This document shows, in pieces, positions 1-25,318 of a stretch of DNA of 64,000 nt (position 1 is the stretch's first letter; each line of letters begins with the position of its first letter). Below the pieces are notes generated by a model. The model ran no database searches. It was given only the letters and a program-made list of their open reading frames with translations, and had not been told where the DNA came from. The position numbers and the translations under genes were made by a program. Source of the DNA: Promethearchaeia archaeon. Lineage in GTDB: Archaea; Asgardarchaeota; Lokiarchaeia; Sigyniarchaeales; SOKP01. The stretch lies in contig JAHQWP010000218.1 in the NCBI GenBank assembly GCA_029856235.1, positions 70 through 64,069 of the forward strand, in the 5' to 3' direction.

Positions 1-1
1 C

Positions 2-1120: not shown

Positions 1121-1130
1121 TTTTTTTTTT
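1121..1130 (+). terminator. oligo-T tract (archaeal-type terminator candidate)
   Basis: T10, 19 nt after the stop of the PP-loop gene. Confidence 0.35.
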
Positions 1131-1239
1131 CTATTTGTTTAACTCTGATTAGATCAGTCCGCGACAAATTTTTTCTTTAAATATTTAAAATTATTTTCGT
1201 CTCTAACATAAAATATAAGCTGGTAGATGTAAAAATATT

Positions 1240-2928: not shown

Positions 2929-2984
2929 ATTTATTAATTGATATTTTTTCTTCTTTTATAATAGTATTTTAAAGGCTATACTCT

Positions 2985-3245
2985 ATGGATGAAATTAGTG
3001 GGATACTTTCTGCTGAAACCGTAGCAAATGGAACTAAATCCGAAGGACCTAGATATTATATTCAACCGTTAGATGACTACGCTAATCGGTGGTCTAAAAT
3101 TCTCGTAAGGAAACAAGTTATGTTGTGGCAGAACGATCCAGTGCTACATAAATTTATTGGTAAAAAAGTGATAATTCATGGCGAGATAATCGAGACTAAA
3201 AGTACTATCACCGTAGATTACAAATTCGTAGAAGAATTAGAATGA
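2985..3245 (+). CDS. hypothetical small protein (86 aa)
   Basis: ORF 57 nt downstream of the rSAM gene on the same strand. No recognisable motif. Confidence 0.4.
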   Translation: MDEISGILSAETVANGTKSEGPRYYIQPLDDYANRWSKILVRKQVMLWQNDPVLHKFIGKKVIIHGEIIETKSTITVDYKFVEELE

Positions 3246-3267
3246 TTAATCGAATTTTAAATAAAAA

Positions 3268-3492
3268 TTACACCTTTATTTTTTCTACCTTGTAATACTT
3301 ATTAGTTAAGTCATCCTTGTGCGCGTTTCGTTGTTTAGACTTTCGTTCTCGCAGCATTTCGTTCACTAATTCTACACTCCCGCGCTTTAGAAACATTCTA
3401 ATGAATTTTAGCTCATTCACGCTAATATTAAGCGTTTGGAGGAATTCAGAATGCCGAAAATTTCCCCAATCCAGATTACGATTTTTTTTCAT
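3268..3492 (-). CDS. hypothetical basic helical protein (74 aa)
   Basis: ORF only. It competes with an overlapping + strand ORF (3317..3499) whose product is low-complexity; the minus-strand product looks more protein-like. Confidence 0.3.
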   Translation of the reverse strand: MKKNRNLDWGNFRHSEFLQTLNISVNELKFIRMFLKRGSVELVNEMLRERKSKQRNAHKDDLTNKYYKVEKIKV

Positions 3493-3672
3493 GGTATAGA
3501 CCTATTTATGTTTATAATTATAGCGAATAGTTACGCATATATAAAAAAAAATTCGAGTGTAAGATCTCCGAGAACAATTTTGTTCTAAATTTTTCATTTA
3601 AATAAAGCTACGTCTATTAGTATGTATAAAATAAAGTTTATAGCAATTTAATTAAAAAACCTGTTACCCAAG

Positions 3673-8103: not shown

Positions 8104-8847
8104 TTATTTTTCCCAATAATCGGGATTAAACTCTTCTAAATCGTAGGGAGGCCAAGCTTTAGGCGTTTTAATATTTCGAACAAAACGATGGGTACACTTC
8201 TCAGCTCCAAATCCTAAAGTTTCTGTGCGCGTAAATCCAAAACCAAGACCTTCAGCTTCATAGTGATCTCCTAAACAAATAAACGGGAGATATTTCTCGG
8301 CCCCTAGTTTCTTATACCCCTTCTGAACTCCACACGCCGTTATGTCCCATCCCCACTCAAAATTTTCACCATCTCCCTCTACAAAATCCATTACCCAATC
8401 GTCGGGATAAAGTCTTAATTGAGTTTCTTCGGTTAATTTTTTTTGATAGTCCATGTATACGGGATCAAAGGGGTATTGGGAAGGATCCCGACCTGCTTGC
8501 TCTAAAGCTTTTTTTCTATTTTTATTAACTTCTAATATGTAGTTATAATGGAATACCCCGATTTCTCCGAATGAAAACCCAATTTTTTCCAGTGTGCGAA
8601 ACACTGCGAGATCTGACATGCATTTGACAAGGATTAAAGTAAGAGGATTTTTTTGTCCTCCAATGTATGGAATGTGAGGTAATATTCCCTCAAATTCTGC
8701 TCTCATTTGGTTAATTAGCTCTTCGCACTTGTTGTTGTCAAATTTCTTACCAAGTACTTCGTTTACTACTGCTAAACGCTCGTCAAAACTCTTTATGAAT
8801 TTTGATTTCTTTTTAACATAAAAATCATCAACTATTTTGGTAGTCAT
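8104..8847 (-). CDS. L-2-amino-thiazoline-4-carboxylate hydrolase-like (ATC_hydrolase family) protein
   Basis: C-terminal pattern ACGV...LGAEKYLPFICLGDHY...FTRTETLGFGAEKCTHRF matches my memory of the C..x..C..D...R..TL..G...C..F signature of that family. Confidence 0.5.
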   Translation of the reverse strand: MTTKIVDDFYVKKKSKFIKSFDERLAVVNEVLGKKFDNNKCEELINQMRAEFEGILPHIPYIGGQKNPLTLILVKCMSDLAVFRTLEKIGFSFGEIGVFHYNYILEVNKNRKKALEQAGRDPSQYPFDPVYMDYQKKLTEETQLRLYPDDWVMDFVEGDGENFEWGWDITACGVQKGYKKLGAEKYLPFICLGDHYEAEGLGFGFTRTETLGFGAEKCTHRFVRNIKTPKAWPPYDLEEFNPDYWEK

Positions 8848-9023
8848 AATTGTCTATTTTATGATTGGTTCATCCAATTTCAATTTATTCAAGTTCTTTG
8901 CTATGTAAAAATTTTATAGAAAAGGTATAGAATGGATAATAATAATTTTTTTATTCTTACTCTTATTATTCTCCTAAAGAACTTTGCTGATAAGGTCTTA
9001 TTCATTAATTTAATTTTTCTACC

Positions 9024-10025
9024 ATGAAACCAGAAAAAAATTCAGATCGCAAACAAGAACTCGTGGCTTATATATTACTAATTTTAACCATGGTTATTTG
9101 GGGCGGTACGTGGCCATTAGGACGATGGTTAGTTTCAGAGGAAGTAGGAGGAGCTACAATCCCTCCATTCATGATTGCAGTAATCCGATATTTTCTAGCA
9201 GTCATTTGCTTTTTTCTGATCCTTAAGTTTAAAGAAGGGTCTTTAAATTGGCAGTTTGCTAAAAAACATTGGAAGATATTAACTTTAATGGGATTATTAT
9301 CGGTGACAATTTATCAAGCGGGTTATTTAATTGGAGAGATATTTACCAGCGCGAGCGACGCGAGCATAATGGTTGCAACTAACGCAGTTTGGGTAGTTAT
9401 TCTTTCAAGTACTTTCTTGAAAACTGAAGGGTTTGCATGGAAAAAGATGGTTGGCTCATTACTAGCATTCATAGCAGTCGTTATTGTTGTAGGTTTTTCT
9501 CCCAATGTAAACGTGGCGAATCGGATTTTTGGAGATATTATGATACTATTAGCGGCATTTGGTTACGCCACTTATACCGTTATAACTCGCTTTTTCTTAA
9601 ATAAAACTCTCGAAAACAATAAATCCTATCAACCTAGCTCCATTTGGATTATGACCTATGTTTCTTTATTTGGTTTTTTAATAACTACTCCTATTGCTTT
9701 AATTATTAGTCCAGAGTTCTTAATTCCTGCAACATTTTTAACTATACCCCCTCGCGTATGGATAGGTATATCATATCTTGCGTTTATATCTACGATCGGT
9801 GCATATACATTCTATTTAGAAGGAGTTAAACGTTTAAATGCTAGTAGAGCCGCAATTTTCCAAGCACTTGTTCCATTATTTGGAGTGTTGTTCTCTGCTT
9901 TGTTCTTGCAAGAGCTATTCGATGTGTTCATCTATCCCTTCGCCTTATTGCTTGTCATACTAGGAATAATTCTCGTAAACCTTAAGAAAACGAAAATCAA
10001 AACTAGAGATGATGATATTAAATGA
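9024..10025 (+). CDS. EamA/DMT-family transporter
   Basis: About 10 TM segments arranged as two 5-TM halves, typical EamA duplication. The stop overlaps the next start (ATGA). Confidence 0.8.
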   Translation: MKPEKNSDRKQELVAYILLILTMVIWGGTWPLGRWLVSEEVGGATIPPFMIAVIRYFLAVICFFLILKFKEGSLNWQFAKKHWKILTLMGLLSVTIYQAGYLIGEIFTSASDASIMVATNAVWVVILSSTFLKTEGFAWKKMVGSLLAFIAVVIVVGFSPNVNVANRIFGDIMILLAAFGYATYTVITRFFLNKTLENNKSYQPSSIWIMTYVSLFGFLITTPIALIISPEFLIPATFLTIPPRVWIGISYLAFISTIGAYTFYLEGVKRLNASRAAIFQALVPLFGVLFSALFLQELFDVFIYPFALLLVILGIILVNLKKTKIKTRDDDIK

Positions 10026-10847: not shown

Positions 10848-13800
10848 TTACTCAATCAAACCATCTACGAACTGTACAAGAAAGTTAATTCCTAACACCA
10901 AATAGACTACTCCTAATATGACCCTACCAAGTTTTGACCAACTTCCCTTAAATGCACTCAAAATTATACTGCCTGATATTAATTTATTACTTCCTTTGAT
11001 TAAACTTCCTACAGTTTCAATAGCTAACTCAACAATATCATCTATGTTCAAATAATCAGCGTAAGTAAGAAAATCTATGTCGTAATTGACATACTTACAT
11101 AGATTATTAAAATTTTTCACTTCTTTTTTTAGGTCATCGTCTGTATATGCGTTTTTATATCTAGAAAATCCGAATTCTTTTACTTGATTAGGTATAATGG
11201 CAGTTACGCCTGAGAGTAAAAAGCCTAAGCCAATTCCTAAATTGATAGCGTTTCCTTTTTCTTCTACTTCAGAACCGATATTATATACAAGTGAAATTAT
11301 CAGCCCTACAATTGCACCAATTCCTACAATTAACGAGATTCCTTTAGTAGCTTTCGCGGCTTCTATTGAAGGACCTAAAATAGAGAAAGTAATACCGCAT
11401 TTTTCCATCGTTTGACCCATTTTTTTAAATCCTTCAAGGTATTCAGTAAGAGTATCTACCCAGGTCTCCTCAGCAGTTTCAGTGAATTCAAAAGTTAATT
11501 CATCAGCTTTAAGAACAAAGTTGAAACCCCAGTCCTCACCACTATAAAACACTTTCAAAGTGGGCATATCCATATTAAAAAAGTCATCAAATTCCATAAA
11601 GACAACAAAACCTAAAGTGAATCCAGGATTTACTGTTAAACTATTTCCTGTAAAGCTTACGTCTATATCGCTAAAAAGGCTAATAATTCCGTAGACTAAA
11701 GCTAAGGATGTAATCACTTTGAACATCATTTCAATAATTATTGCAATCATGAAGTAGTGATTAATTAGGGTGAAAAATTTAAAGATGAGTATTATAAATG
11801 GCGCAAAAGGTCCTGCTGCCCAAACCAACGCTGCTTCAAAAAGTACCAGAGCTACGGAAGTAATTTTAGCTATAAATCGACCAAAAGGTTCAAAATCACC
11901 AACCATAATGCCTTGGATTGCTTCGACCCACAATTTACCTAATTCAACTTGAAAGTCATAAAAATCCGTAGGCGGAGGCCCGATTTCGTCGTTTAAAGTT
12001 GCTGGAGCGATGCTTGGTATGACTTGTAATATATCCGTATGAATGTTCATTAATTCAATGACAAAATTATCAAGTTTGGTGCTGGCAAACTGATTGATAT
12101 ATCCTATAATGTTGTTTGTTTTGTTTACTATCCCTTTTAGTGTATAATTTAAAAGCATTTCAGCTTCTAACCATGTGCATTCTAACATAAGAAGAGTGTT
12201 TAATTGATTACTTGAAGTTTGTGGAATATCGTCGCGGTTTTGAGCAATAAAGGTTCCATCTGCTAAAATAGAATTATTGAACTTAGTTTCATTTTGAATT
12301 ATTGAATTCAGTAGAGAGTCGACATAAAATTCATTCGGAATTAATATGGTATTCAATCCCTGTACGAAAGGACTTGATGTATCAGGTGTATCTGTTACTG
12401 TCACTGAAAAAACATGCATACTATCATATTCATTATAGTGTCCATTGAAAACAGTAGTATTATCAAATATTGCGATCGCATTTGAACGGGAGATGCCAAA
12501 AGTGCTTACTTCAAACCGTAACCAATCATCACTACTATAACGAGTAAAAACTGGATGCACTTTCCCGCTATCGTAAGTAGTTCCAGCGGGATGTTCCCTA
12601 AAACTATGTACGTATTTAACTTCCATCCTTAATGTATCCCAAACTCCTAATCCCTTATCCCAAAGTTGGAATTCTAATTCACAATTTGTTTCATCGTCTT
12701 CTATATCAAAATAATACGCATAATCAAACTCAGCTGTGCGCCAGTATTTAATGTAAGCAGTGTGCTCTCCTTCGTCAGGATCTTGGGTAGCTTCTTCTAC
12801 AGGAGTAATATAACTAATATTACTATTTCGGAAATAATAAGTTACTACTAATTGCATTTCTGGATGTTGTTCTGATGTTATATACCACAGTGGTAAATCA
12901 TCTACGTGACCTTTTTTCAATTTGACTTTTAATAAAACATTTCTTAACGGATCTAAATCACGCGAATCTCTTATACCATCTCCATCTGAATCCCAAGAAA
13001 CTGGATTGGTTGGTTCACTTCTATCGTAAATCTCATAACCATCCGACCATCCATCTCGATCGCTATCTCTCTCGTCTGGTTTTGTAATCCAAGCATCAGT
13101 ATCTTCTGCAGTAGCTTCGCGATGTCCGTATGTGACCAATGATAGATTGGAAAGGATGAATAAATCCAAATCTGATGTGTCGTAGATTTCTAAGATTATA
13201 TCATAGTATCCATCAAATCTATACGGATAATAGCTGGAGGGTCTAAAATGATAATCATTGGAATAACTGCCCAAAGCGGAAAAAGAATGGTTTTGGGAAA
13301 GTCTTATTATTTCAGGAAGTCTGCAATCAATTTCTTTCTGGACTACTTTTACATTGACCCAACCATCTCCATCTAAAATACCATTTGAATTTATTGAAAA
13401 GTAGACATCGGCATCATATATCTTACCAATATCACTAATTTCAATCCGGTAAATATCGTATGTACTGTTATCAGTATCAGCAGTAATATTAACAAGATCA
13501 TCGAACTTGCTTATCTCATAACCTTGAGCATAAAGTTTGCATTCTACACCATCCCATATACCATCGTTATCGAAGTCATTATCGTTTGGATCAAGATATC
13601 TCAGTACATTAATACTATATTTCTCTAGTGATAATTCCCCGTGCTTATCATCCAAATACATAACTTTGAAAACATAATATCCAAAATATGTCTGTCCTGA
13701 ATTTTCAATGATATCTTTTATATCAATAGTTCTACTGAAATATCTTTCAGTGCCATTTGTTAATATAATGTCATCGTAAAGTATAAGCTCTGAATCTAGC

Positions 13801-16800
13801 TTAAATATTTGAATCCTTATATCCGAGAGTAAGTCGCTTGAAGCATCTTCTCCATAAGTTAAAAGGAAGTTGACGCCTGCACTCGCAGCTGTCTCCACAT
13901 CTCTTTTTGCAAAATGCAATATTACTGGAGTAGATACATCTTTTCTTCCATCTATTTCATAATTAAAATTAACCATTTCTTCGTTATCCGCAAGGTAATC
14001 ATTGTCGGAATCTTTAAGTAGAGGATTAGTAATAAACGCCCATCCATGATATTCGTCACCATCTAGCAAACTATCACCGTCTGTATCACTATTATTGTAG
14101 AGAGTCCCTATCTTGAATTCTGTTCCATCCAATAAGTTGTCGTCATCGCAATCAGGATTGGTCGGATCTGAGCCGTATTTATTAATTTCCAGGTAATCAG
14201 TTATACCGTCGTTATCGGTATCTGCTCTACGCGGATTGGTTTTGTATAGGTATTCTTCATAATCATCTAACAAATCTTTATCAGTATCTTTCATAAGAGG
14301 GCTAGAGGTATAATTTATTAGTTGTTTGCCTTGACCAGTATAAATAGTATGAGTCCAACCAAAAAATTCAAACCCATCAAGTAATGAATCAGAATCGGTA
14401 TCGTTTATCAGAGGATTCGTTCCTACGGAAAATTCTCCTGAGAATGTCCCAATATTCCAACCATCGGATAGTCCATCTCCATCGGTATCATAATTAGTAT
14501 CAGATGTGTTCGTTGTTAACTCCTCGTAAAAGTTGGGAAGTCCATCATGGTCCACATCTGTAGAAGTTTTATTATTCAATAGTTCCCACTCATTTGTATA
14601 CCCATCACCATTACTGTCCAAAACAACATCTACATAGAATTCTTGTGAAGCGATTAGATCAGTGGTATCTCTCACCGATACATGACCTTTAATAGTCGAT
14701 GATTCATTACAAAATACAGAGATTTTAGAGGATAGTGTCCCAGATTCGACGAGAACCCTTCTATTTGCTATTAGCCACTCAAATTCTAAGGTTTCCGAAT
14801 CAATGAATGAATCCCACGCATAAGCATTAATCTCAATATACCCGGGACTTCCATAATATCTTCTATTCGGTACGGTGATGATTGGTTCGAGATTTATCAG
14901 ATCTAAGCTAATTTGCACCAAAACAGATTGTTCGTTTTCAATTGATAATTCGATAATGTAACTGCCTTCATCTAAAGCGAGGGATGGTTTTTTTCCATAA
15001 ATCGTATCTACATATTCATCAGAAACAGCTATAGGGTATAGATTATCACCAAGGTTATACACACCTGAACCATCGTAATATCCGAACGCATCGCAATAAA
15101 GGGACATCTCTGCTACTCCTCCCGATTTAATGTGTAAGCAATCGAGATAGGAAGTATTGTGATTAGGAGGTAAACCGAATTGCATCGTATAAGATTGAGA
15201 ACTTATTCCATCCACAATTATTCGCCATTCCTTGTCTTTTAACCCCAAATAGTTACCATTTGAGCATTCATAATCAATACGGATGTGATGCCATGTATTA
15301 GACGAAAATAGAGGTAAATTTGGAATTACAGAATTGTTTCCTAGGTAGTAATTTCTAAATATCCAAGTGCCATTATCGCTAATGAAAATGGGTATTATTT
15401 CTGTTCCAGAATTTGAAATTGAAATTTGGATGTTCTCTCTTTCAGGATCAATATAAGAAGATCTTATCCAAAATTCTATACTTCCATTAACAGATTCACT
15501 ATCACCATAAGTTAATAAAAAGTGTCCCTCTCCTTGATTGTTATTATCTTCTACTTTCAATACATTATAATGATCGGATAATTCTTCAACGATTCCATAA
15601 CTTATGTCAGTCTCGCTATAAAATTCGAAAGGTAAACCGGGTAGATCATCTTCCTCAAATTCATCAAAGTTATAAGTACTATTATAACTGTTTAGCCTTC
15701 TATAAATATCCCAAGTATAAGCCAAATTATAATCTACAATGCTATCAATAGCATCAACATTTAGAGTAATAGTTTGCCCTTCAACCCCACTGAAAGAAAA
15801 TGGGCCGATCACATTAGGAGGTTTTTCAACAACTTCGATAATGTAAGACGCACAATAAGAATCACCATTATTATCTTTAACATATAGTTTTACTGTATAG
15901 GTACCGGCTTCCATAAAAGCATGTGATGGAGATGTTTCAGCTGAGAATACTCCATCTCCGAAATCCCAATAATGTCTGAGGGAGTTTATATCAGAGTCAG
16001 AATCGTAGAAGTCTGCTTCAAAAACAATAGTCTCATCTTCACTTGTTACATTCTGAAATGTTCTAATCTTTGCATATGGTGGTCTATTAACTACTTCAAT
16101 GAAGCGAATCTTCTTCGCATAATTTATTCCGTCGCTAGCTATTACTTGAATAAGGTACATGCCCGCATTAGTATATGTAAAGTTCACTTCGAATTGGTCG
16201 TTTCCAATATCTATCATAGGAAGATAAACTAATCCGCTTCCATCATTTATTCCAAAGGATATATTTGCTTCTAAACTATCAGCATTAATATCGTATATTT
16301 CAGCAAAGTATGTTACAGTTTGATCTTCTATTAGACTATCAGGAGCGTGAATTATAATTTCAGGAGTAAGATTGTCAAATAGACACTTTGAAGTTATATT
16401 AAATCCAAAATTCTCATATTGAATGTTATTTGGAAGTTGTGTTTCATAATATTCAGCATTGATAAAATGATTCGTATCAATAAAATTAATGCTATTTATA
16501 CTTTCATCGTTCAGAATGTCGATAGCAATGTTGTAAATATCAATATGAGTCAAATCCGCTTTGAATGAGAAATCATAGCTTACAGGAAAGGTTCCATTTA
16601 TTAAATCTAAATACCAACCTTTAGGTATCGATCGTATGAATTTTAAGCTCGCATACTTTCTACTATTTCTTTCAGATATTTCTAACTGGCAAGTAACATC
16701 GTCAATTATGAACGATTTATTATAGATTGGAGTAGCGTAATCAACTTCAAAATTAATTTGAATCGAGTAATCAATAGTAAGCTCTATCTTATCGTCGCTA

Positions 16801-19800
16801 GGATCTGATACAGAGCCTCCAAAAGTTAAAGGTACCAGTGAAAAATTATTTGAGTCAACCCAAATGTCGTTAACATCAACCATCCAAATTGTATCCATTC
16901 CATCAAAATTATTAGAAAATGTTGCTCGATATCCATTTTCAAATAAGATAGTTAAATTAAATAGGTGTTGACCTCCTTCTCTTGCTGTTTGATTTACAAC
17001 CAGTTGCCAATTTTCTGAGGGATCTATTTTGATAATTGAAGAATCTAATTCTATTAAGCTAGCGTTATGATTAGATGGAAAATTGGCTAAATAAACGCTT
17101 TGATTGTATCTGTCTGATACTAAGGAAACACTAAAGTTCGCTCCTTCTGGACCACTATTATAAATTGAACCTGATATGTTTGAGACAATATAAGCAGAAT
17201 GAATATCGAGAGTTGGTAACACATTCTTAACTTTAAGATAGTATGAATCAATATCCCAAATATATAGTGGATCCATAACTAATCCAACAATAGGATAAAC
17301 ATCTGTTTCATCTCCATAAATATTGTTAAAGAAAGTATAGGAATAATACCAGCCTTGGTCTGCCCAATCTCCAATATTTAAGTGTAAATCCCCCCATTTA
17401 TAAATAAGTTGCTGATAGTCAGTGAATGTATCATACCCAAATGCTTCAAGAAGTATCGTCTCACCCTCAAAAAATTCTTGTTGGATATATGCGAATTTAT
17501 TATCACCAACACTATAATACGGATCCCAAGAAAAACCAAAATTATCGATGTATACTTGGACGGGTTGAACAGTTACAATATCAGTAAAAATTCCAAAGCA
17601 AGTAAGATTCGAAATATCAGGATGATCAAAATGATTCATTTCTAAAATCTGAGACGGATTATCATCAGCATAAATAATAAATGTATCGTTTTCAAGTCCG
17701 TTATAAAGACTGTTGTCGCAGCAAAAATCGATCCGGATATGCGTCCATGAATTATCTTGTAGTGCCCAAAGATTTTCAAAAATTATTTCACTAGCACCAT
17801 GTCTCCAAGAACCATTCACAAATTCTATAAATATTCCATCTTGAGAATTATCTTCGAAACTTGAGATAAATATCTCTGAGATCGAAGTATCTGTGGTATA
17901 AAGCCAAAATTCCATTGTCCCACTAAGTTGATTTAAGTTACCGGGATCTGATTGGTTATAGGGTAAATCACTTATATTACAAGTCCATATTCCTCCAATT
18001 CCAGTACCATTCCCTATTAAGACAACATTATTGAATTCATCGATAGCCTCAACTACTTTAGTTATATTTAATGTCAATTCTTCTAAAGAACTTCGGTACC
18101 ATCCATCTGGAAATTCTCCAACCTCATTATCAGCAAAATCGTATGTAGTTGCACCATATTTTAAATACTCTATATTTATATTCGGATAATGGTTATCAAT
18201 CCAAATATATTGTTCATAAATGTCAAATATGCCATTATCATCAATCGTAATTAATCTTACCTTATATTTTCCAGATCTTCCGTATGAGTGTAAAACAGTC
18301 TGACCGAATCCAGTTTGATTATCACCAAACATCCAAAGATATCGTAAATTATCTTTGTCAGTAGAAGTGTCAGAGCAATCACCTGAAAATATAATCTCTG
18401 TATCGGCATACACACTAATTCTAGGATAGCGATTATCTCCTACATCATAGGATGGATCCCAAGATGCTCCAATTGCATCTAAATATATAGAATAATCTTC
18501 TCCTTGCTCTTTTGTGCTCCAAATATTCCAGCTAAAATCTGAAACTGGATAGTCAAAACTAAATGGTCCATGTTGAGATTGAACACCATCAATTCTGAGA
18601 TTAAATTCATTTTTGGCTAAACCATAATAATTTCCATTATCTCTACACTCGAAATCAACTCGAATATGATGCCATGTATTATTAAGCATAGAAGGAAGAT
18701 CTGATATTGGGAGATATTCTTCTCCATTTTTATACCACCAATCTCCTTCAGAGCCTAACCATATTCCGCTCTGAAGTGTTTTATGTCCAAGAGACATAAC
18801 TAGCCCTTGAGATGTGTCAGTCGTTCTACACCAAAATTCCAGAGTACCATAATTCGCTTTTGCCATATCTAAAAGCGACGCGAATACAAGATCTTCGTTG
18901 TCGTTGTCATACAACTCAAGGATTTTATGATGCCCATCTATTTCGGAAAGTATATTGGCTGAACAATTATCTGAGATTTTCTCAAAATCATAAGAAGCAA
19001 ACATCCAAGGTCCTAGAATTGTAGATTGGATGGTTTCATCATAGGGGATAGGTCCATTAGGATAAAACCTAAAATCCCAGGTTCCATAATATGTTTCTAA
19101 TCGGGTAGGGTTATTATCACCAAGTAGATAGGATGGATCTGTTGTAAAACCAATTGAATCTATAAACATGTGAGATCCTGCTTTAAGATCAATGCCTAAT
19201 CTATTAAATTGTTTACCTACAGCATCATAAACATTTGAAGGTTGACCATTAATGTAAACTCTCCATTCATTACCAGTTAATCCATCATAATCGATGTTAT
19301 CCGAAAAACAATAATCAAATCTAAAGTGTGTCCATTCATCTACTTGTGGCTGACCTAATTCGAGGATTTCAGCATATGCATATCGATCCTCGTTATTTAC
19401 TCCTTTAAAGGTATAGTACCGCATCCATTTTCCATTTAGAAAGCCAATCCTAGTAGAATTTTTTAAAGCGCGGGGATTATCGTATATCTCCTCTAATTTA
19501 TCTATCCAGAAAAAGAACTGATCGTTTTCAATACTCGTAAAATAGATCCAAAATTCTACTGATCCATTGTATTTAACGTCTGATTCAGGAAATCTTATCA
19601 TTCCGTATCCGCCGGCCTCATTATCGATTTCCAATACTTTTGAAAATTCGTCTTTAAAATCAATTACTTCGATATTTCCATGGGTATAGAGTTCAGTTGG
19701 AGATTGACCCGATATGTCAAATTTAAAATCATAACTTACATCATAATTCAGACCATGCGTAATCGAAGAGGTTGGCTTTTTATTTTCTATTGTAAATGTT

Positions 19801-21476
19801 CTTAACCTTGTTTTCATAGCCCCTTGATCGTCCATTAAAGTTAGGCGGACAGGGTATTCTCCTGCATTAATAAATTTATAGGTCGGGGATTCTTCCCGAG
19901 AATAATTTCCATCGCCAAAATCCCAAAGATAGGAATAATTAATGTTAACATCCGTTTCTAAATTATAGCTAAATCCGGTTTTATCGATATCAGATTCTTC
20001 TAAATTAATCACACTAAATCTTATTTCAAGATCTTCATATAAGTGATCTGGATATATAATTTTTAAATTATCTCCAACACGATAGAGAGGATCCCATGAG
20101 TACCCTACAGCATCTATATACATAGTCCCATTAGATTCGATATTCAGCGAATTTATCCCTAACCAAGAGGGATTCATTCCAAATTCTTTGCTTGATTCTC
20201 CATTAACATAAATCTTGAAATAACCGTAACCCAATCCCATGTAATTGTCAACGAAAGGGCCAGCCCAATCAATTCTTACATGGTACCACGTGTTATTTTG
20301 TGGTAGAGGAGCATATCCATGAGCGGGATCTGTAATATCATTACTTGACACATACCACCTATTATCTTTTTGAACTAAACCAAATTCATCTGAAATTGAA
20401 AATATTTCCCCTCCTAGATTCGTGTTTTCAGTCTTATACCAGAATTCAATTGTTCCATATTCTTGCATTGGAAAACTTTGCTCAATTCCGCAAAATTGTT
20501 GGGATCCACCAAAATCTAATTTAACTATTTTTCCATGATCATGCTCGTCTTTTACGATTTCTACTCCTTTTTCGACTCTTTCAAGCTTTAACCAATCAAT
20601 TGCTATATTCTCGGTATCGTTAGCATTACCTTCAATGTAAAAACTTGTATAAAGTTCTAGAATTTGAGGGTAATTCAATGTTAACACTTGCCCGTTAGCA
20701 TAATTTCCATCAAATAAAATCTCATTCTCTTCTAACTCAGGATTGAACATCAATAAGGACATAGAGTCATTTGCTGAAAAATAGAATTTATATGTTCCTG
20801 GAGTTAAATAATGGTTTTCCCATTGTTCAAAGTTGAGAATTATATCTATGTATCGATATGCATAACCCGTGTGTATAGAGGTGATGTTCCAGTAGTTAAA
20901 ATCTTCAAGTAAAAGGTTTGAAAAATTTCCTCCAGCTAAATATCCAGCAGTTATAATTGTGTCTTCTCCTAAATAGAAATCAATATCGTTACTATATTCA
21001 TTCCAATCTTCAAGTGGTATGCCAACCTCAATATCTTCAAAATCATATGTTCCATTATGATATTCTACAGAAGTATATCCGATGTCAAAATCTGGAGCAT
21101 CGTTCAATACTTCAATTATTAACCATTCTGAATCTGGTACTCCAGGTCCAAAAGCCCATAGCGTTACATTATAAATTCCTTCAGCATCATATGTATGCGA
21201 AAAAGTGGAACCTGTGATATAGTCGATGTAGGTGCCATCTCCTAAAAAGACGCTTGTATTTTCGTAGTTATCTACATCATAAATGAAATTAATTTCTTCA
21301 TAAACATCAGTACGGTATCGCTTATAACCTACAACTTCTGCATCGCATCTGAAATCTACAATTTCTACTAAACCAAAAGATAGATATAGAATTTGAACAA
21401 AGCTAGCCGAAATAATCGTAATACCTATCAATATTGCCTTTATTATCGTACCTGAATTTTTTTTCTTTTCCATCAT
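10848..21476 (-). CDS. giant (3542 aa) membrane-anchored surface protein: LamG_3-like x5, PKD-like domains, thrombospondin type-3-like Ca-binding repeats, multi-TM C-terminus
   Basis: Uninterrupted 10.6-kb ORF with an N-terminal signal/anchor (IIKAILIGITIISASF). Five LamG-like modules carry W(H/T/Y)H(I/V/F)R(I/V/F)D(F/W/Y) cores at nt 20265-20288, 19311-19334, 18651-18674, 17724-17747 and 15270-15293. PKD-like WDFGDG motifs. 12 DxDxDGxxDxxE repeats. Hydrophobic helices in the last ~400 aa. Confidence 0.9.
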   Translation of the reverse strand: MMEKKKNSGTIIKAILIGITIISASFVQILYLSFGLVEIVDFRCDAEVVGYKRYRTDVYEEINFIYDVDNYENTSVFLGDGTYIDYITGSTFSHTYDAEGIYNVTLWAFGPGVPDSEWLIIEVLNDAPDFDIGYTSVEYHNGTYDFEDIEVGIPLEDWNEYSNDIDFYLGEDTIITAGYLAGGNFSNLLLEDFNYWNITSIHTGYAYRYIDIILNFEQWENHYLTPGTYKFYFSANDSMSLLMFNPELEENEILFDGNYANGQVLTLNYPQILELYTSFYIEGNANDTENIAIDWLKLERVEKGVEIVKDEHDHGKIVKLDFGGSQQFCGIEQSFPMQEYGTIEFWYKTENTNLGGEIFSISDEFGLVQKDNRWYVSSNDITDPAHGYAPLPQNNTWYHVRIDWAGPFVDNYMGLGYGYFKIYVNGESSKEFGMNPSWLGINSLNIESNGTMYIDAVGYSWDPLYRVGDNLKIIYPDHLYEDLEIRFSVINLEESDIDKTGFSYNLETDVNINYSYLWDFGDGNYSREESPTYKFINAGEYPVRLTLMDDQGAMKTRLRTFTIENKKPTSSITHGLNYDVSYDFKFDISGQSPTELYTHGNIEVIDFKDEFSKVLEIDNEAGGYGMIRFPESDVKYNGSVEFWIYFTSIENDQFFFWIDKLEEIYDNPRALKNSTRIGFLNGKWMRYYTFKGVNNEDRYAYAEILELGQPQVDEWTHFRFDYCFSDNIDYDGLTGNEWRVYINGQPSNVYDAVGKQFNRLGIDLKAGSHMFIDSIGFTTDPSYLLGDNNPTRLETYYGTWDFRFYPNGPIPYDETIQSTILGPWMFASYDFEKISDNCSANILSEIDGHHKILELYDNDNEDLVFASLLDMAKANYGTLEFWCRTTDTSQGLVMSLGHKTLQSGIWLGSEGDWWYKNGEEYLPISDLPSMLNNTWHHIRVDFECRDNGNYYGLAKNEFNLRIDGVQSQHGPFSFDYPVSDFSWNIWSTKEQGEDYSIYLDAIGASWDPSYDVGDNRYPRISVYADTEIIFSGDCSDTSTDKDNLRYLWMFGDNQTGFGQTVLHSYGRSGKYKVRLITIDDNGIFDIYEQYIWIDNHYPNINIEYLKYGATTYDFADNEVGEFPDGWYRSSLEELTLNITKVVEAIDEFNNVVLIGNGTGIGGIWTCNISDLPYNQSDPGNLNQLSGTMEFWLYTTDTSISEIFISSFEDNSQDGIFIEFVNGSWRHGASEIIFENLWALQDNSWTHIRIDFCCDNSLYNGLENDTFIIYADDNPSQILEMNHFDHPDISNLTCFGIFTDIVTVQPVQVYIDNFGFSWDPYYSVGDNKFAYIQQEFFEGETILLEAFGYDTFTDYQQLIYKWGDLHLNIGDWADQGWYYSYTFFNNIYGDETDVYPIVGLVMDPLYIWDIDSYYLKVKNVLPTLDIHSAYIVSNISGSIYNSGPEGANFSVSLVSDRYNQSVYLANFPSNHNASLIELDSSIIKIDPSENWQLVVNQTAREGGQHLFNLTILFENGYRATFSNNFDGMDTIWMVDVNDIWVDSNNFSLVPLTFGGSVSDPSDDKIELTIDYSIQINFEVDYATPIYNKSFIIDDVTCQLEISERNSRKYASLKFIRSIPKGWYLDLINGTFPVSYDFSFKADLTHIDIYNIAIDILNDESINSINFIDTNHFINAEYYETQLPNNIQYENFGFNITSKCLFDNLTPEIIIHAPDSLIEDQTVTYFAEIYDINADSLEANISFGINDGSGLVYLPMIDIGNDQFEVNFTYTNAGMYLIQVIASDGINYAKKIRFIEVVNRPPYAKIRTFQNVTSEDETIVFEADFYDSDSDINSLRHYWDFGDGVFSAETSPSHAFMEAGTYTVKLYVKDNNGDSYCASYIIEVVEKPPNVIGPFSFSGVEGQTITLNVDAIDSIVDYNLAYTWDIYRRLNSYNSTYNFDEFEEDDLPGLPFEFYSETDISYGIVEELSDHYNVLKVEDNNNQGEGHFLLTYGDSESVNGSIEFWIRSSYIDPERENIQISISNSGTEIIPIFISDNGTWIFRNYYLGNNSVIPNLPLFSSNTWHHIRIDYECSNGNYLGLKDKEWRIIVDGISSQSYTMQFGLPPNHNTSYLDCLHIKSGGVAEMSLYCDAFGYYDGSGVYNLGDNLYPIAVSDEYVDTIYGKKPSLALDEGSYIIELSIENEQSVLVQISLDLINLEPIITVPNRRYYGSPGYIEINAYAWDSFIDSETLEFEWLIANRRVLVESGTLSSKISVFCNESSTIKGHVSVRDTTDLIASQEFYVDVVLDSNGDGYTNEWELLNNKTSTDVDHDGLPNFYEELTTNTSDTNYDTDGDGLSDGWNIGTFSGEFSVGTNPLINDTDSDSLLDGFEFFGWTHTIYTGQGKQLINYTSSPLMKDTDKDLLDDYEEYLYKTNPRRADTDNDGITDYLEINKYGSDPTNPDCDDDNLLDGTEFKIGTLYNNSDTDGDSLLDGDEYHGWAFITNPLLKDSDNDYLADNEEMVNFNYEIDGRKDVSTPVILHFAKRDVETAASAGVNFLLTYGEDASSDLLSDIRIQIFKLDSELILYDDIILTNGTERYFSRTIDIKDIIENSGQTYFGYYVFKVMYLDDKHGELSLEKYSINVLRYLDPNDNDFDNDGIWDGVECKLYAQGYEISKFDDLVNITADTDNSTYDIYRIEISDIGKIYDADVYFSINSNGILDGDGWVNVKVVQKEIDCRLPEIIRLSQNHSFSALGSYSNDYHFRPSSYYPYRFDGYYDIILEIYDTSDLDLFILSNLSLVTYGHREATAEDTDAWITKPDERDSDRDGWSDGYEIYDRSEPTNPVSWDSDGDGIRDSRDLDPLRNVLLKVKLKKGHVDDLPLWYITSEQHPEMQLVVTYYFRNSNISYITPVEEATQDPDEGEHTAYIKYWRTAEFDYAYYFDIEDDETNCELEFQLWDKGLGVWDTLRMEVKYVHSFREHPAGTTYDSGKVHPVFTRYSSDDWLRFEVSTFGISRSNAIAIFDNTTVFNGHYNEYDSMHVFSVTVTDTPDTSSPFVQGLNTILIPNEFYVDSLLNSIIQNETKFNNSILADGTFIAQNRDDIPQTSSNQLNTLLMLECTWLEAEMLLNYTLKGIVNKTNNIIGYINQFASTKLDNFVIELMNIHTDILQVIPSIAPATLNDEIGPPPTDFYDFQVELGKLWVEAIQGIMVGDFEPFGRFIAKITSVALVLFEAALVWAAGPFAPFIILIFKFFTLINHYFMIAIIIEMMFKVITSLALVYGIISLFSDIDVSFTGNSLTVNPGFTLGFVVFMEFDDFFNMDMPTLKVFYSGEDWGFNFVLKADELTFEFTETAEETWVDTLTEYLEGFKKMGQTMEKCGITFSILGPSIEAAKATKGISLIVGIGAIVGLIISLVYNIGSEVEEKGNAINLGIGLGFLLSGVTAIIPNQVKEFGFSRYKNAYTDDDLKKEVKNFNNLCKYVNYDIDFLTYADYLNIDDIVELAIETVGSLIKGSNKLISGSIILSAFKGSWSKLGRVILGVVYLVLGINFLVQFVDGLIE
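12960..14620 (-). repeat. coding repeat region: thrombospondin type-3-like calcium-binding repeats inside the giant ORF
   Basis: DSNGDGYTNEWE, DVDHDGLPNFYE, DTDGDGLSDGWN, DTDSDSLLDGFE, DTDKDLLDDYEE, DTDNDGITDYLE, DCDDDNLLDGTE, DTDGDSLLDGDE, DSDNDYLADNEE, DFDNDGIWDGVE, DSDRDGWSDGYE, DSDGDGIRDSRD. Confidence 0.75.
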
Positions 21477-21495: not shown

Positions 21496-22359
21496 TTAAT
21501 CAGATTTAGGTGACCGTTTTAGCTTAAAATATGATCTTAACGAATTAAGTGCAAAAAACAAGGTAATCCCCCCAATTGCAATTGAGACAGAGAGAAAAAG
21601 GGGATTAACTATTACTTCAGCTTCATTTGCGTAAAAGTTCATCCAACCAAGTTGACTCACATTTATCCAATTTATTATTAGGTGTAATTGACTTTCGCTA
21701 AGATTAAATGTTAACATTAAGATATTGTTGTAATTACCATTTCCAATAGCATCTAACCACATAACATCACCGCTTGTCACAAGCGAGAGAGAATTTGAGG
21801 GGTTCCAAAGGGCTTGACACTGATTTATTGTAAGTCCTGAAGGATTGGCATGATAAGAGATATTTAGATCAGCATAAGGCATTTGATTATCTAGATCGAC
21901 ATCTCCTATGATTTCAGCACATTCTTCTTGAATGTATCCTCCAATCACGGGGATTTCAACAACAGGAAACCAATCATTTGCCCATTCTTCATAAAACATC
22001 TCTTCTACTGAAGGTAATTTTTCATCGTATAAGCCACCCAACGGATCATTCTTAACTTCATCCAAAAGAGATTGAAATTCAGTTTCTACCGAACACTTAG
22101 CAGTCAAAAGAATATTGGCAAAGTTTTCATCAACTAGATTCTCATTATATACTGTTTGAGACTCAAAACTCAGCATAGCGCCACTTACTGCTAGCCCGAC
22201 GCCCAAAAAAACAATTATCAGATTTAAAATAAGTCGATTTTTTTTTACAGGAGTATTTTTTTCTCTTCTCTTTTTTGAAAAAATACTAATCTTCATTAAT
22301 TTTTCGCCTCTTCTAAGCAAGTAATTAATCTGGAAAAACCATTTTTTTTGATTTCGCAA
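21496..22359 (-). CDS. membrane protein with N- and C-terminal TM helices, co-oriented 19 nt upstream of the giant gene
   Basis: ORF of 287 aa. The more likely start is Met22 (ATG at 22296, MKISIFSKKRREK, GAGG about 12 nt upstream). TM at LNLIIVFLGVGLAVSGAML and at SVSIAIGGITLFFAL. Confidence 0.6.
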   Translation of the reverse strand: MRNQKKWFFQINYLLRRGEKLMKISIFSKKRREKNTPVKKNRLILNLIIVFLGVGLAVSGAMLSFESQTVYNENLVDENFANILLTAKCSVETEFQSLLDEVKNDPLGGLYDEKLPSVEEMFYEEWANDWFPVVEIPVIGGYIQEECAEIIGDVDLDNQMPYADLNISYHANPSGLTINQCQALWNPSNSLSLVTSGDVMWLDAIGNGNYNNILMLTFNLSESQLHLIINWINVSQLGWMNFYANEAEVIVNPLFLSVSIAIGGITLFFALNSLRSYFKLKRSPKSD

Positions 22360-22480: not shown

Positions 22481-25318
22481 ATGAGGATCATCGTGAACAA
22501 ATTAAAAAAACTATTCCTTCTCTTAATTTTAGTTGTATTTTTGATAATAGCTCCAAATATGCAATTTCCTTTAAATTCTAATTTAAGCAGTTTAGAGTCT
22601 GAAGAAAACGCTCAGGATCAGCTCCCTAAAACCAGTCAACCCTTTGTTAATATCTCTATCCCTGAAAATAAAACTTACCTAAGAGATACGAACGATTACC
22701 GTTGTTCGTACGATTTTGAGAATATGTATGATTTCGATGCGGATATAGGTAAAGGAATTATAAATGAGTTGGATGGACATCATCACGTACTAAAACTAGG
22801 TTTTCGTGGTGTTTTATATAAGTATTGGGAAGCTCAATATTCCGGTACTGTTGAATTTTATTTTAGATCTGAAGATGTGACTGATAATTTAGAGATGTTC
22901 TTAGGTTATTTTTGGGAACCAATACACTTATTTGTTGATAATGGCGAATTCTGGTACTATTGGGCTACTGGACGATACGATTCTGGTTGTGACATTATAA
23001 ATTTAGCAGGAGGTTATAAGCCAAAAAACAATGTATGGCATCATATTAGAATTGATTTTGAAATTACTAATGGAGGTTATGCAAGTTTAGAAAAAGAAGA
23101 GTGGAAACTCACAGTTGATGGACATTCATCTGGAGAGTTAAAAATGTGGAAAGATGTTTGGACTAGCAGTCCACCAAGTTTAAAGGTAGACGGTGTATTT
23201 TTAGATTCTTGGGTTAATTATCCAGATGGTGGAGCTTATTTTGACGCTTTTGGCTTTAGCTGGGATAATCCTTATTATTCTGTAGGAGATAACTTAGAGG
23301 AAGGCTTTCCTTTAAGCTTTACCTATGAAAGTGCTATTGATTTTGTTTCATTTAAATTTTCTCTTGATGGTCAGCCTAATATTTCTATTCCAGGGGATTT
23401 TATAATTGAACTGCCCGATTATGGCCCTCATACTATTCAGGTTTTTGGAACAAGCGATACAAGTGATGTTTATCACTCAGAAATAAGACATTTCTTAATG
23501 AGCCCAATAAAAGTCCTTACTCCTTACGAAGACTCGGTGTGGGAAGAAGGTAGTAGCTACGACATAACATGGATCTCAGAATCAACTTTCGATCTTATCG
23601 ATATTGAAATCTATAAGGGAAATAAACTGAAGTTTGCGTTTCCGAATATTAACACTTCCCAAGCTCAAGGAGTCTTCTCTTGGAATATTACTGCTGATAC
23701 ACAACGAGGTATTGATTGGATGGTAAACATTAGCAGTAGTAGCGATCCTTCGCTCTATTCGCTAAGTGATAGATTTCACTTAGCTTCTTCTATATCAGTA
23801 ATCTTTCCTAAATCGACTTCTTCTTGGTCCTCCAATAATTACTATAGCATAACATGGAGTACTTTAGGTACCATCGATTTTGTCGATATCGAGTTATATA
23901 ATGGGACGGAGTTTAAGTATTCGCTCGTAAATAGAACGGATAATGACGGTTCCTTTACCTATTTTCTTCCCTTTAGCATCGAAGCAAGTTTTTTTTGGCG
24001 AGTAAAAGTAATTGATAGCGATAATTCAAGCATTTTTTCGTATAGCCCCTACTTTGAAATTTTTACTTATAAATCCTTTTCGTTTATCGATCCTAACTCA
24101 GATACGGTATGGGAGAGAGGAACGAGCCAATATATCACCTGGACATCGACAGGAAATATCATTTATGTGGACATTGAACTATATAAAGATGGTATCCTCC
24201 AATATTCGATTGTGAATTCAACTGAAAATGATTGGGCAAGATATTGGGAAATCCCCAAAGATCAAGAAGCGGGAGCGGATTATCAATTAAGGATGATTGA
24301 TGTTTACAATAACTCTGTAGATGCTTGGAGCGAAGAATTTGAAATAAAAGTAATCCCAGATATTTATATTACTAGTCCACATAGCACGTCTGCTTGGAAA
24401 TCTGAATCGAGTTATCTAATTACCTGGGGAAACTCGGCGAGAGCTAACATCTCGAGAGTCATTATCGAAATTCGTAAAGGATTTGATTTAAAGTATTCAT
24501 TAGGTGAAACTGATAATGATGGAAGCTATTTGTGGATATTACCGTATAATCCTGAACCAGCCACGGATTGGAATGTAAAAATAAGTGATGCCCATAACGA
24601 ATCGACTTATACCTATAGCCCTAGTTTTGAAATTTATACCGATAAATCAGTTTTTCTAACCGGACCTTCGACTACTTCGGTATGGGCAGCTACTAGAACT
24701 TATACGATTACATGGAGTACAACTGGTACAATTTTTAGTGTCAATTTGAGTATATATCAAGGAACTAGTTTAATTCAAGCATTTGATGAAATTGAGAACG
24801 ATGGATTTTTCGACTGGACAATTCCAGAAGGAGTACAAGCCAGCACAGATTGGTCGATTGAGATAAGAGTTTCTGATTATGAATATATAACTTATCAAAG
24901 CCAAAATTTTGAAATCTACATTATAAAATCGCTTGGTATTACTCATCCAAATGCAACAGTTGTTCTAGAAAAGGGACAATATTATGATATTACATGGAAT
25001 ACTAAAGGCGTGATTGATAACATAGATATAGAACTTTATAAGGATAATTCATTCGTAAGAACTATTACGAGCGATGAATTAAACGACGGGAGGTTTCTAT
25101 GGCAAGTACCAAGTTCTCTAGAAGATTCATCAAATTACAAGATCAAGATCATGGATTCAACGAATTCATCAGTATATGACTATAGCGATTACTCCTTTGA
25201 GGTGAAAACGGGACTTGAAACAGGTATACCTGGTTTTCATATTTTATTCTTATTCATGGGATTCTTCATTACAACCACGGTATTATTAGAAAAAATGTGG
25301 AAAAAACTAAAAAAATAA
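22481..25318 (+). CDS. secreted/anchored surface protein: LamG_3-like module + six ~95-aa Ser/Thr-rich beta-sandwich repeats + PGF-CTERM-like tail
   Basis: Signal peptide. Same LamG signature as the giant protein (WHHIRIDF at 23036-23059; YFDAFGFSWDNPYYSVGDN). Six repeats of the pattern W..G..Y.ITW...G.I..VDIELY...NDG.F.W.IP. C-terminus is GIPGFHILFLFMGFFITTTVLL + KKLKK. Confidence 0.85.
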   Translation: MRIIVNKLKKLFLLLILVVFLIIAPNMQFPLNSNLSSLESEENAQDQLPKTSQPFVNISIPENKTYLRDTNDYRCSYDFENMYDFDADIGKGIINELDGHHHVLKLGFRGVLYKYWEAQYSGTVEFYFRSEDVTDNLEMFLGYFWEPIHLFVDNGEFWYYWATGRYDSGCDIINLAGGYKPKNNVWHHIRIDFEITNGGYASLEKEEWKLTVDGHSSGELKMWKDVWTSSPPSLKVDGVFLDSWVNYPDGGAYFDAFGFSWDNPYYSVGDNLEEGFPLSFTYESAIDFVSFKFSLDGQPNISIPGDFIIELPDYGPHTIQVFGTSDTSDVYHSEIRHFLMSPIKVLTPYEDSVWEEGSSYDITWISESTFDLIDIEIYKGNKLKFAFPNINTSQAQGVFSWNITADTQRGIDWMVNISSSSDPSLYSLSDRFHLASSISVIFPKSTSSWSSNNYYSITWSTLGTIDFVDIELYNGTEFKYSLVNRTDNDGSFTYFLPFSIEASFFWRVKVIDSDNSSIFSYSPYFEIFTYKSFSFIDPNSDTVWERGTSQYITWTSTGNIIYVDIELYKDGILQYSIVNSTENDWARYWEIPKDQEAGADYQLRMIDVYNNSVDAWSEEFEIKVIPDIYITSPHSTSAWKSESSYLITWGNSARANISRVIIEIRKGFDLKYSLGETDNDGSYLWILPYNPEPATDWNVKISDAHNESTYTYSPSFEIYTDKSVFLTGPSTTSVWAATRTYTITWSTTGTIFSVNLSIYQGTSLIQAFDEIENDGFFDWTIPEGVQASTDWSIEIRVSDYEYITYQSQNFEIYIIKSLGITHPNATVVLEKGQYYDITWNTKGVIDNIDIELYKDNSFVRTITSDELNDGRFLWQVPSSLEDSSNYKIKIMDSTNSSVYDYSDYSFEVKTGLETGIPGFHILFLFMGFFITTTVLLEKMWKKLKK
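23505..25205 (+). repeat. six tandem ~95-aa coding repeats (Kre9/KNH-like Ser-Thr-rich module)
   Basis: Repeat openings: IKVLTPYEDSVWEEGSSYDITW, ISVIFPKSTSSWSSNNYYSITW, FSFIDPNSDTVWERGTSQYITW, IYITSPHSTSAWKSESSYLITW, VFLTGPSTTSVWAATRTYTITW, LGITHPNATVVLEKGQYYDITW. Confidence 0.8.

Follow-up and report, generated by a model that had tools for sequence, protein, structure and literature searches.

In DPANN archaea, multi-LamG/PKD proteins have been described, those of Nanohaloarchaeota having as many as five ConA-like/LamG domains, as have the giant 'SPEARE' proteins, which are anchored in the membrane; LamG/PKD-rich surface proteins of this kind are regarded as host-recognition factors and as mediators of recognition between cells (PMC10266531). 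We describe here a protein of 3542 amino acids encoded by a Promethearchaeia archaeon (Asgardarchaeota; Lokiarchaeia), in a stretch of 64,000 nucleotides (positions 70 to 64,069 of contig JAHQWP010000218.1, assembly GCA_029856235.1) that we call the window. Like the DPANN proteins, it is archaeal, large, secreted or membrane-bound, and contains several ConA-like/LamG and PKD/immunoglobulin (Ig)-like domains. Contrary to them, it belongs to the Asgard archaea, it has a stalk of thrombospondin type-3 (TSP3) motifs and a C2-like domain, its C-terminal anchor is polytopic, and it lacks a VirB4/TraG-like ATPase domain; no sequence relationship with the DPANN proteins was detected beyond generic folds. 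We consider it probable, although far from certain, that this giant protein is a glycosylated, calcium-stiffened, glycan-binding surface protein which serves in adhesion or in the cell envelope, is held by its multi-helix anchor and is paired with a membrane partner.

Bacterial-type TSP3 arrays are found in cell-surface adhesion/cohesion proteins of Myxococcus, CglD and MtsD (NF033765 and NF047639). The giant protein matches these two models in its TSP3 region only, with 49.6 bits for CglD (E 1.4e-13, cut-off 400) and 31.6 bits for MtsD (E 4.7e-8, cut-off 800). CglD, however, is a lipoprotein of a two-membrane bacterium, and neither CglD nor MtsD has a LamG/PKD array or a polytopic anchor.

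The adhesins of the LapA, SiiE and MpIBP type are built as very long chains of Ig-like domains, acidic and stiffened by calcium, which carry ligand-binding modules and project from the surface; they depend on type 1 secretion with an RTX signal at the C-terminus, an outer-membrane pore retains them, and they contain many near-identical repeats. The giant protein resembles them in its long acidic chain, presumably also stiffened by calcium, with putative ligand-binding modules, but it differs in its putative N-terminal signal, in modules that are divergent and fixed in number and in a C-terminus that is integral to the membrane, and scans with Pfam and NCBIfam found no RTX family in it. The comparison with polycystin-1 and the adhesion G-protein-coupled receptors (GPCRs) is an architectural analogy only: these proteins combine a huge ectodomain, with PKD and/or LamG/lectin domains, and a C-terminal multi-helix domain, with which a beta-sandwich domain is associated. 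No homology to their membrane domains was detected with the C-terminal 703 residues in Pfam or in PDB sequence searches, the match to TIGR00864 is restricted to the PKD repeats (39.9 bits for a cut-off of 1861), and no GAIN/GPS, REJ or PLAT domain was found in the giant protein.

Among Asgard archaea, candidate surface proteins defined by PKD domains are known in Promethearchaeum syntrophicum (PMC11284389). Many unrelated giant genes have been noted in Asgard genomes, and giant Asgard proteins have been listed without an analysis of the family described below (PMC8813620). We found no description of this C-terminal cassette, of the module family or of the partner gene in the literature. The building blocks are of known kinds; what is new is their combination, the module and cassette families, which are restricted to Asgard archaea, the C2-like domain and the polytopic anchor.

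An earlier reading of the window, made from the sequence only, had claimed an open reading frame of 3542 residues and had feared that it resulted from a misassembly or a collapse of repeats. The frame is present and uninterrupted (coordinates are collected in Table 1), and a GGAG-type ribosome-binding site lies a few bases 5' of its ATG. A database search returned about 19 full-length orthologues, each of 3516–3571 residues and 40–84% identical to the giant protein, from independently assembled NCBI, ENA, JGI and Logan data. Conservation along the ectodomain is even (column identity of 0.55–0.80 in the orthologue alignment). Within the gene, no near-identical DNA repeat was found, only stretches of 36–43 nucleotides with about 70% identity at motif positions, and no tandem repeat; at the protein level, the modules are only 20–31% identical to one another. 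The existence of about 19 orthologues of the same length and the absence of near-identical DNA repeats show that the gene is real and under selection. The chance that the frame is an artefact of assembly or gene calling, produced by collapsed repeats or by the fusion of neighbouring genes, is therefore practically nil, and assembly collapse was rejected on the same grounds. All relatives that bear an organism name are labelled 'Candidatus Lokiarchaeota archaeon' or 'Promethearchaeota archaeon', and the public annotation of orthologues and relatives is limited to 'PKD domain-containing protein' or 'hypothetical protein'. The G+C content of the window is about 33%. The names of the relatives, the Arf/Roc GTPase genes of syntenic loci and the genes of Hdr/Mvh type in the window all point to a host among the Lokiarchaeia-type Asgard archaea (phylum Promethearchaeota).

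The N-terminal two thirds of the protein are dominated by five modules, M1 to M5. That each of them has an EFW strand and a W.H.R.D core, as previously claimed, is borne out by motif scans: EFW occurs exactly five times (residues 344, 641, 880, 1189 and 2001), and so does the core W[HTY]H[IVF]R[IVF]D[FWY] (residues 397, 715, 935, 1244 and 2062). Two other motifs had been attributed to every module and hold only in part. Y[ND]GL as written fits two of the five modules, whereas the general form Y-x-G-L fits all of them. The full signature Y..D..G.SWDP.Y.[VL]GDN ends three modules (residues 453, 998 and 1309), but M2 has the variant FIDSIGFTTDPSYLLGDN at this position and M5 has the variant YCDAFGYYDGSGVYNLGDN, with an insertion. 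Profile–profile comparisons (hhalign) among the five modules give probabilities of 98.5–99.9% and E values from 3e-15 to 2e-33; at the level of sequence profiles, the modules are homologous beyond doubt and are no chance pattern.

The assignment of these modules to LamG stands at the level of the fold, and fails at the Pfam threshold (see below). The AlphaFold2 model of M3, built from 36 module sequences, is a 12-strand, two-sheet jelly-roll beta-sandwich, with a predicted local distance difference test score (pLDDT) of 79.5 and a predicted template modelling score (pTM) of 0.82. A Foldseek comparison of this model with the PDB gave 87 matches at E ≤ 1e-3, all ConA-like, with E values down to 6e-8; they include the sialidase lectin domain, NTNH/BoNT Hcn, PL7 lyases, laminin LG, agrin, neurexin and pentraxin, and the query-normalised template modelling scores (TM-scores) are only 0.40–0.56. 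The module alignment has no match at E ≤ 1 among PDB sequence profiles, and some orthologues bear a precomputed PF13385 assignment. Judging from the model, the modules are LamG-like in their fold, and judging from their EFW, W.H.R.D and SWDP.Y.VGDN motifs they form a sequence family of their own. A word-index search with the module profile added no more than six proteins, each from Promethearchaeota or from marine sediment. In species-representative genomes, the M3 alignment retrieved only five paralogous modules (25–37% identity, in metagenome-assembled genomes (MAGs) of Promethearchaeota) and no orthologue of the giant protein. Small proteins of Promethearchaeota, P0046 and P0049 (about 397 residues), contain the module by itself.

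The PKD domains that had been described between the modules are clear by Pfam. In the whole protein, PKD_4 (PF18911) scores 147 bits and PKD (PF00801) 105.8 bits, each over four stretches and above its gathering score, and the W.FGD motif occurs three times (residues 518, 1048 and 1837). The total is three to five domains: three are clear (residues ~495–575, 1025–1105 and 1797–1875) and two are weaker (~75–110 and 1700–1795). The start of the region 125–300 resembles that of M2 and M4 (hhalign probability of 70% with M2). No Pfam or NCBIfam family was found for residues 125–300, 1335–1700, 2150–2290, 2495–2640 and 2840–3542, and residues 2645–2800 have no Pfam match.

Downstream of M5, twelve motifs of the form D-x-[DN]-x-D...D-x-x-E are spread over residues 2287–2840 (nucleotides 12957–14618, approximately): nine in an array, one at residue 2634 and two at residues 2804–2840. 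The sequence-only reading had counted twelve DxDxDGxxDxxE repeats here. Twelve degenerate copies are indeed readable at this place, but the strict consensus is found in only three of the twelve, and a looser pattern in eight. The TSP3 assignment itself is upheld, marginally by Pfam (one copy of TSP3_bac, PF18884, with 26.3 bits for a cut-off of 25) and by the twelve motif copies.

The alignments indicate that these motifs are part of a conserved cassette, which makes up the C-terminal third of the protein. Its order is presumed Ig-like domain, TSP3 array, insert 1, insert 2, TSP3, C2-like domain, FNGHYN region and multi-helix domain. Local hidden Markov models (HMMs) derived from the orthologue alignment recover the same order in the paralogues P0012 and P0021–P0024, and part of it in P0025–P0029. 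The paralogues that bear the cassette have 3.3–5.0 thousand residues and come from Lokiarchaeota/Promethearchaeota MAGs; their N-terminal module arrays differ, and optional modules may be present between insert 1 and insert 2. Other proteins consist of five to seven modules without the cassette.

To determine the extent of the cassette family, a profile of the last 703 residues was searched exhaustively against 1.84 billion cluster representatives. It matched 321 clusters at E ≤ 1e-3 and 131 clusters at the stricter E ≤ 1e-30. The match is at or near the C-terminus in those proteins that look complete, whose lengths range from about 1,200 to 5,870 residues, and all members with an organism name are Lokiarchaeota or Promethearchaeota. 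A word-index search with the same 703 residues returned only one partial match, and a tighter cassette alignment gave pattern matches in species-representative genomes, yet no relative. The family-wide Pfam scan, which left out one member of more than 5000 residues, found PKD domains in 12 of the 12 divergent members; the rest of their ectodomains varies, canonical Laminin_G_3, DUF2341 and CBM96 being found once each. The aspartates of the TSP3 motifs are invariant across 12 divergent members, as are N-T-I-A...F-N-G-H-Y...P-F..G.N...I-P and a D-x-x-x-P in a loop of the membrane domain. The cassette is also present on a much shorter, complete-looking protein, P0061 (1189 residues). Since the module is found alone in P0046 and P0049, and the cassette on the short P0061, the two appear from these sequences to be independent building blocks.

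The first ~160 residues of the AlphaFold2 model of residues 2840–3542 are a confident beta-sandwich. The top 50 Foldseek matches of this model in the PDB are all C2 domains, with E values of 5e-5 to 6e-3 and target-normalised TM-scores of 0.6–0.74. Foldseek gave no query range, and we assigned these matches to residues 2841–3005 based on the size of the domain and the confidence of the model, so that the term C2-like is meant structurally; residues 2840–3542 have no Pfam match at E ≤ 1. For the region that follows, residues 3006–3170, no known relative was found in the PDB or in Pfam.

The last ~360 residues had been said to contain several hydrophobic helices rather than a single anchor, and this is confirmed. 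There are three hydrophobic clusters (residues ~3185–3270, 3356–3430 and 3490–3540), a pattern that is kept in all 18 sequences compared (the giant protein and 17 orthologues), with 5–9 hydrophobic segments in each. A polytopic C-terminus is unusual for this kind of protein, as had been remarked, and we add that it is kept in all orthologues and in the wider family. The loop between clusters 1 and 2 (residues 3271–3355) is beta-rich and acidic (15.9 D+E for 4.3 K+R per sequence), has an invariant D-x-P-T and is modelled with a pLDDT of 70–83, while the loop between clusters 2 and 3 (residues 3431–3489) is helical and relatively rich in Lys/Arg. The positive-inside rule suggests that the former loop is on the outer side of the membrane and the latter on the inner side, with about seven helices.

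The membrane domain is the least conserved part of the sequence (column identity of 0.35–0.45 vs 0.55–0.80 in the ectodomain). The C-terminal 703 residues have no match at E ≤ 1 among PDB sequence profiles, and no channel, transporter or receptor family matches the membrane domain in Pfam or PDB sequence searches. The idea, raised earlier, that this domain might form a pore finds no support here: an anchor fits better than a pore, because its sequence is the least conserved and because it matches no channel or transporter family.

Regarding export, the N-termini of the orthologues begin with a Lys-rich stretch, continue with a hydrophobic core and end in small residues (SFG/TFG/RGA/AAA). This segment is likely a cleavable Sec signal peptide, an uncleaved anchor being a conceivable alternative. 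The middle ~3,100 residues have no hydrophobic segment in 17 of 18 sequences, the exception being a single 19-residue window in P0013. The ectodomain has on average 54 N-X-S/T sequons, 1.74-fold more than composition-matched shuffles, and is strongly acidic (454 D+E for 159 K+R per protein). Export and topology, the binding of calcium and glycans, adhesion and the interaction with a partner are inferred, while what the analysis shows directly is a real gene, its domain folds and motifs, a conserved family with its cassette and a conserved neighbouring gene.

The candidate partner is the product of the gene directly upstream, a membrane protein which has an invariant EWANDWFP motif in the middle of its sequence and belongs to no Pfam family. 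A homologue, 37–46% identical, is directly upstream of the giant gene in four of the four orthologue loci that we examined, including the most distant one, and in the locus L001 the two genes overlap by 4 base pairs (bp). The partner gene is absent at the three paralogue loci examined; since it was not found beside paralogues, it appears to be specific to the orthologue group of the giant protein. In the most divergent orthologue locus (L004, positions 8548–9999), the partner has 483 residues, with a C-terminal, apparently cytoplasmic extension that contains Cys-x-x-Cys pairs and which the other partners lack.

We propose the following scheme. After Sec export, the acidic, sequon-rich ectodomain of ~3,100 residues would project from the single membrane. 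The five (possibly six) ConA/LamG-like modules would be the likely units for binding glycans or other ligands, and the PKD/Ig-like domains the spacers between them; the stalk of twelve TSP3-type motifs would bind calcium and stiffen. The C2-like beta-sandwich may rest on the membrane from outside, and a C-terminal domain of roughly 5–9 helices would hold the protein in this membrane, probably working with the small two-helix protein encoded upstream. The job of such a protein would most likely be contact, with partner cells, with the cell's own protrusions or with extracellular matrix, and the giant protein may in this way be part of an irregular protein coat which replaces the surface layer (S-layer). 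Lokiarchaeum ossiferum indeed has no S-layer, 'complex surface proteins' protrude from its single membrane, and some of them connect protrusions (PMC9834061). The previous suggestion of a 'calcium-dependent adhesin or cell-cell contact protein' is reasonable on the basis of the domain content, of the acidic, sequon-rich ectodomain and of the biology of the S-layer-less Lokiarchaeia.

Several observations weigh against this proposal. Scanned singly, none of the five modules reaches the gathering score of Pfam Laminin_G_3 (PF13385), which is 27.6 bits; four of them have sub-threshold scores and M4 has no match. The model of residues 2840–3542 has a moderate overall quality (pLDDT 69.3, pTM 0.37), which is not surprising for a stretch of several domains. 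No single number or orientation of the helices emerges from hydropathy, charge and sequon counts. In our database searches, no orthologue was identified in a cultured strain. Last, adhesins usually vary fast in repeat number. The length of the orthologues is kept within about 1.5%, and a fixed role, structural or machine-like, would suit this no less well.

It may be, indeed, that the protein is a structural element of the envelope, a fixed-length, calcium-stiffened spacer or scaffold which builds a coat or supports protrusions together with its partner, and whose modules bind the cell's own glycans. Its strict length (3516–3571 residues) when identity is only 40–50%, the even conservation of the ectodomain, the dedicated membrane partner and the fact that the gene is present once per locus examined, with conserved neighbours, all go in this direction, as does the surface-density layer, with assemblies at curved membrane, that is seen by cryo-electron tomography (cryo-ET) (PMC9834061). 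On the contrary, there is no sign of self-assembly or of a lattice, and the PKD-domain S-layer candidates of P. syntrophicum (DSAG12_02910 and others) were not detected in its proteome (PMC11284389), which counts against a coat made of such proteins and against our own proposal alike. Strict length speaks for a defined geometry, and the exchange of ectodomains on a single anchor, across the family, for a repertoire of binders; the many paralogues that have shuffled ectodomains on the same anchor resemble a repertoire that diversifies. We therefore hold a purely structural role to be rather unlikely, although it is the most serious competitor of the contact protein that we propose.

A role as contact-sensing receptor or channel, in which the C-terminal domain and the partner signal or conduct when the ectodomain is engaged, as in polycystin-1 or the adhesion GPCRs, seems more doubtful still. 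The architecture is parallel (a PKD and lectin-like ectodomain, a predicted calcium-binding stalk and a multi-helix domain), a loop that is beta-rich and structured and a handful of invariant residues (D-x-P-T, G-x-G-x-G) would be consistent with it, the acidic and basic loops suggest a defined topology of about seven helices, and a single helix would suffice for mere anchoring. The multi-helix domain, the structured loop and the dedicated partner together exceed the needs of simple anchoring, and we give a signalling or conducting role a low probability. The membrane domain, however, is the least conserved, it matches no channel, transporter or receptor in Pfam or PDB sequences, no GAIN/GPS-like element is found beside the first helix, there is no cytoplasmic signalling domain, and the predicted number of helices varies from 5 to 9 among orthologues. 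An anchored surface protein engaged in contact or adhesion remains the reading that we prefer.

Table 1. Features of the giant surface protein and of its upstream partner (positions are those of the window)
Feature	Residues	Window positions	Strand	Basis
Giant surface-protein gene, uninterrupted 10.6-kb frame, ATG start	1-3542	10848..21476	minus	open reading frame list and translation
Upstream partner gene, ~266-residue membrane protein, helix at each end		21496..22296	minus	19 bp from giant start codon; alignment with L001, L003 and L004 homologues
Lys-rich stretch, then hydrophobic helix, likely Sec signal peptide	1-37	21366..21476	minus	hydropathy; one N-terminal hydrophobic segment in every orthologue
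Weak PKD-like Ig domain (~75-110) and 175-residue beta-rich region	40-300	20577..21359	minus	PKD_4 E 5e-5, below threshold
Module M1, ConA/LamG-like jelly roll (predicted)	300-480	20037..20579	minus	Laminin_G_3 E 7.7e-6, 26.6 bits; hhalign vs M3 E 2.8e-26
PKD domain	495-575	19752..19994	minus	PKD_4 E 7.6e-13
Module M2, variant tail TTDPSYLLGDN	575-795	19092..19754	minus	Laminin_G_3 E 7.7e-4, 20.1 bits; hhalign vs M4 E 4.4e-26
Module M3, best conserved, modelled	825-1025	18402..19004	minus	Laminin_G_3 21.3 bits; AlphaFold2 and Foldseek
PKD domain	1025-1105	18162..18404	minus	PKD_4 E 5.1e-13
Module M4	1110-1335	17472..18149	minus	hhalign vs M3 E 6.6e-27; no Pfam match
Conserved region, fold without assignment, common to some paralogues	1335-1700	16377..17474	minus	'mid' HMM matches P0025, P0027, P0028, P0029 and P0030
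Weak PKD-like domain, then strongest PKD domain (1797-1875)	1700-1880	15837..16379	minus	Pfam; hhalign between both, probability 87%
Module M5, variant tail YYDGSGVYNLGDN	1935-2155	15012..15674	minus	Laminin_G_3 E 5.3e-6, 27.1 bits; hhalign vs M3 E 1.8e-33
Presumed Ig-like beta region, start of cassette	2155-2285	14622..15014	minus	'post5' HMM directly before TSP3 array in paralogues P0021-P0029
Array of nine TSP3-type motifs	2287-2500	13977..14618	minus	motif scan; TSP3_bac 26.3 bits; partial CglD and MtsD matches
Two conserved inserts, fold without assignment, split by one TSP3 motif (2634)	2500-2800	13077..13979	minus	'ins1' and 'ins2' HMMs, kept in paralogues; no Pfam match
Two further TSP3 motifs adjoining the membrane-proximal domains	2804-2840	12957..13067	minus	motif scan; invariant D-x-D-x-D in family alignment
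Predicted C2-like beta-sandwich, conserved acidic loops (DIEDD, LWD, WD)	2841-3005	12462..12956	minus	AlphaFold2 block, pLDDT mostly 70-90; Foldseek; invariant residues
Most conserved stretch of the cassette, NxIAI..N.T.FNGHYN....M...PF..G.N...IPN, mixed alpha/beta	3006-3170	11967..12461	minus	invariant columns in family alignments
Membrane domain	3185-3542	10851..11924	minus	hydropathy of giant protein and 17 orthologues; AlphaFold2 secondary structure; charge counts

Other genes of the window also encode candidate surface proteins. Two tandem paralogues of 802 residues with a NosD/right-handed beta-helix fold are found at 25334–27742 and 27887–30295 (minus strand), and a shorter third copy at 46880–48115 (minus strand); one or two such genes are also near the giant gene in the orthologue loci L001, L002 and L003. 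That NosD genes recur near the giant gene across loci suggests that this neighbourhood of surface proteins is conserved. L001 and L002 also have, between these genes and the partner gene, a gene for a ~930-residue Kre9_KNH protein in the same orientation as the giant gene; its counterpart in the window is inverted (22481–25318, plus strand) and codes for 945 residues, with Kre9_KNH Ig-like domains in five copies and a weak match to AglB_L1. The syntenic loci also carry genes for GTPases of the Arf/Roc family.

Elsewhere on the plus strand of the window, a 417-residue protein with a C-terminal TIR_2 domain (33782–35035, E 2.6e-7) is a possible defence or signalling gene product, and two tandem paralogues of 562–563 residues (40048–41739 and 41915–43603) have MalT-like TPR regions. 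A co-oriented set of genes at 52830–62166 (plus strand) encodes four DsrE/DsrH-like proteins, HdrC/HdrB/HdrA-like proteins, MvhD, Oxidored_q6 (hydrogenase small-subunit-like) and a FrhB/pyridine-nucleotide oxidoreductase fusion; this is probably an electron-bifurcating or sulfur-relay module. No tRNA and no Rfam match was found in the window. A mobile-element origin was considered and rejected, based on this absence and on the conserved synteny with housekeeping genes.

Should the multi-helix domain have a function beyond anchoring, it would represent a new type of surface receptor in archaea. The cassette, with its TSP3 stalk, its C2-like domain, about seven helices that have a structured outer loop and, in this orthologue group, a dedicated partner anchored by both of its ends, may even define Asgard-specific contact receptors, in which the engagement of interchangeable lectin/Ig ectodomains is relayed through the membrane by signalling, by conductance or by linkage to the cytoskeleton. 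We give this idea little credence, but if it were true, such receptors would be a prokaryotic functional counterpart of those of the polycystin-1/adhesion-GPCR type, in the closest archaeal relatives of eukaryotes.

The family joins a common anchoring cassette to exchangeable lectin/Ig ectodomains, and in one orthologue group of fixed length there is also a partner gene. It offers targets for further work: proteins to be labelled with antibodies or tags in cryo-ET, modules to be produced recombinantly for glycan arrays and a cassette profile with which genomes can be mined. The surface of Lokiarchaeia has no S-layer, and the proteins that protrude from it are proposed mediators of cell-cell contacts, which matter for syntrophy and for models of eukaryogenesis. 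The cassette family is a concrete, conserved candidate for these surface structures, and it may account for them.

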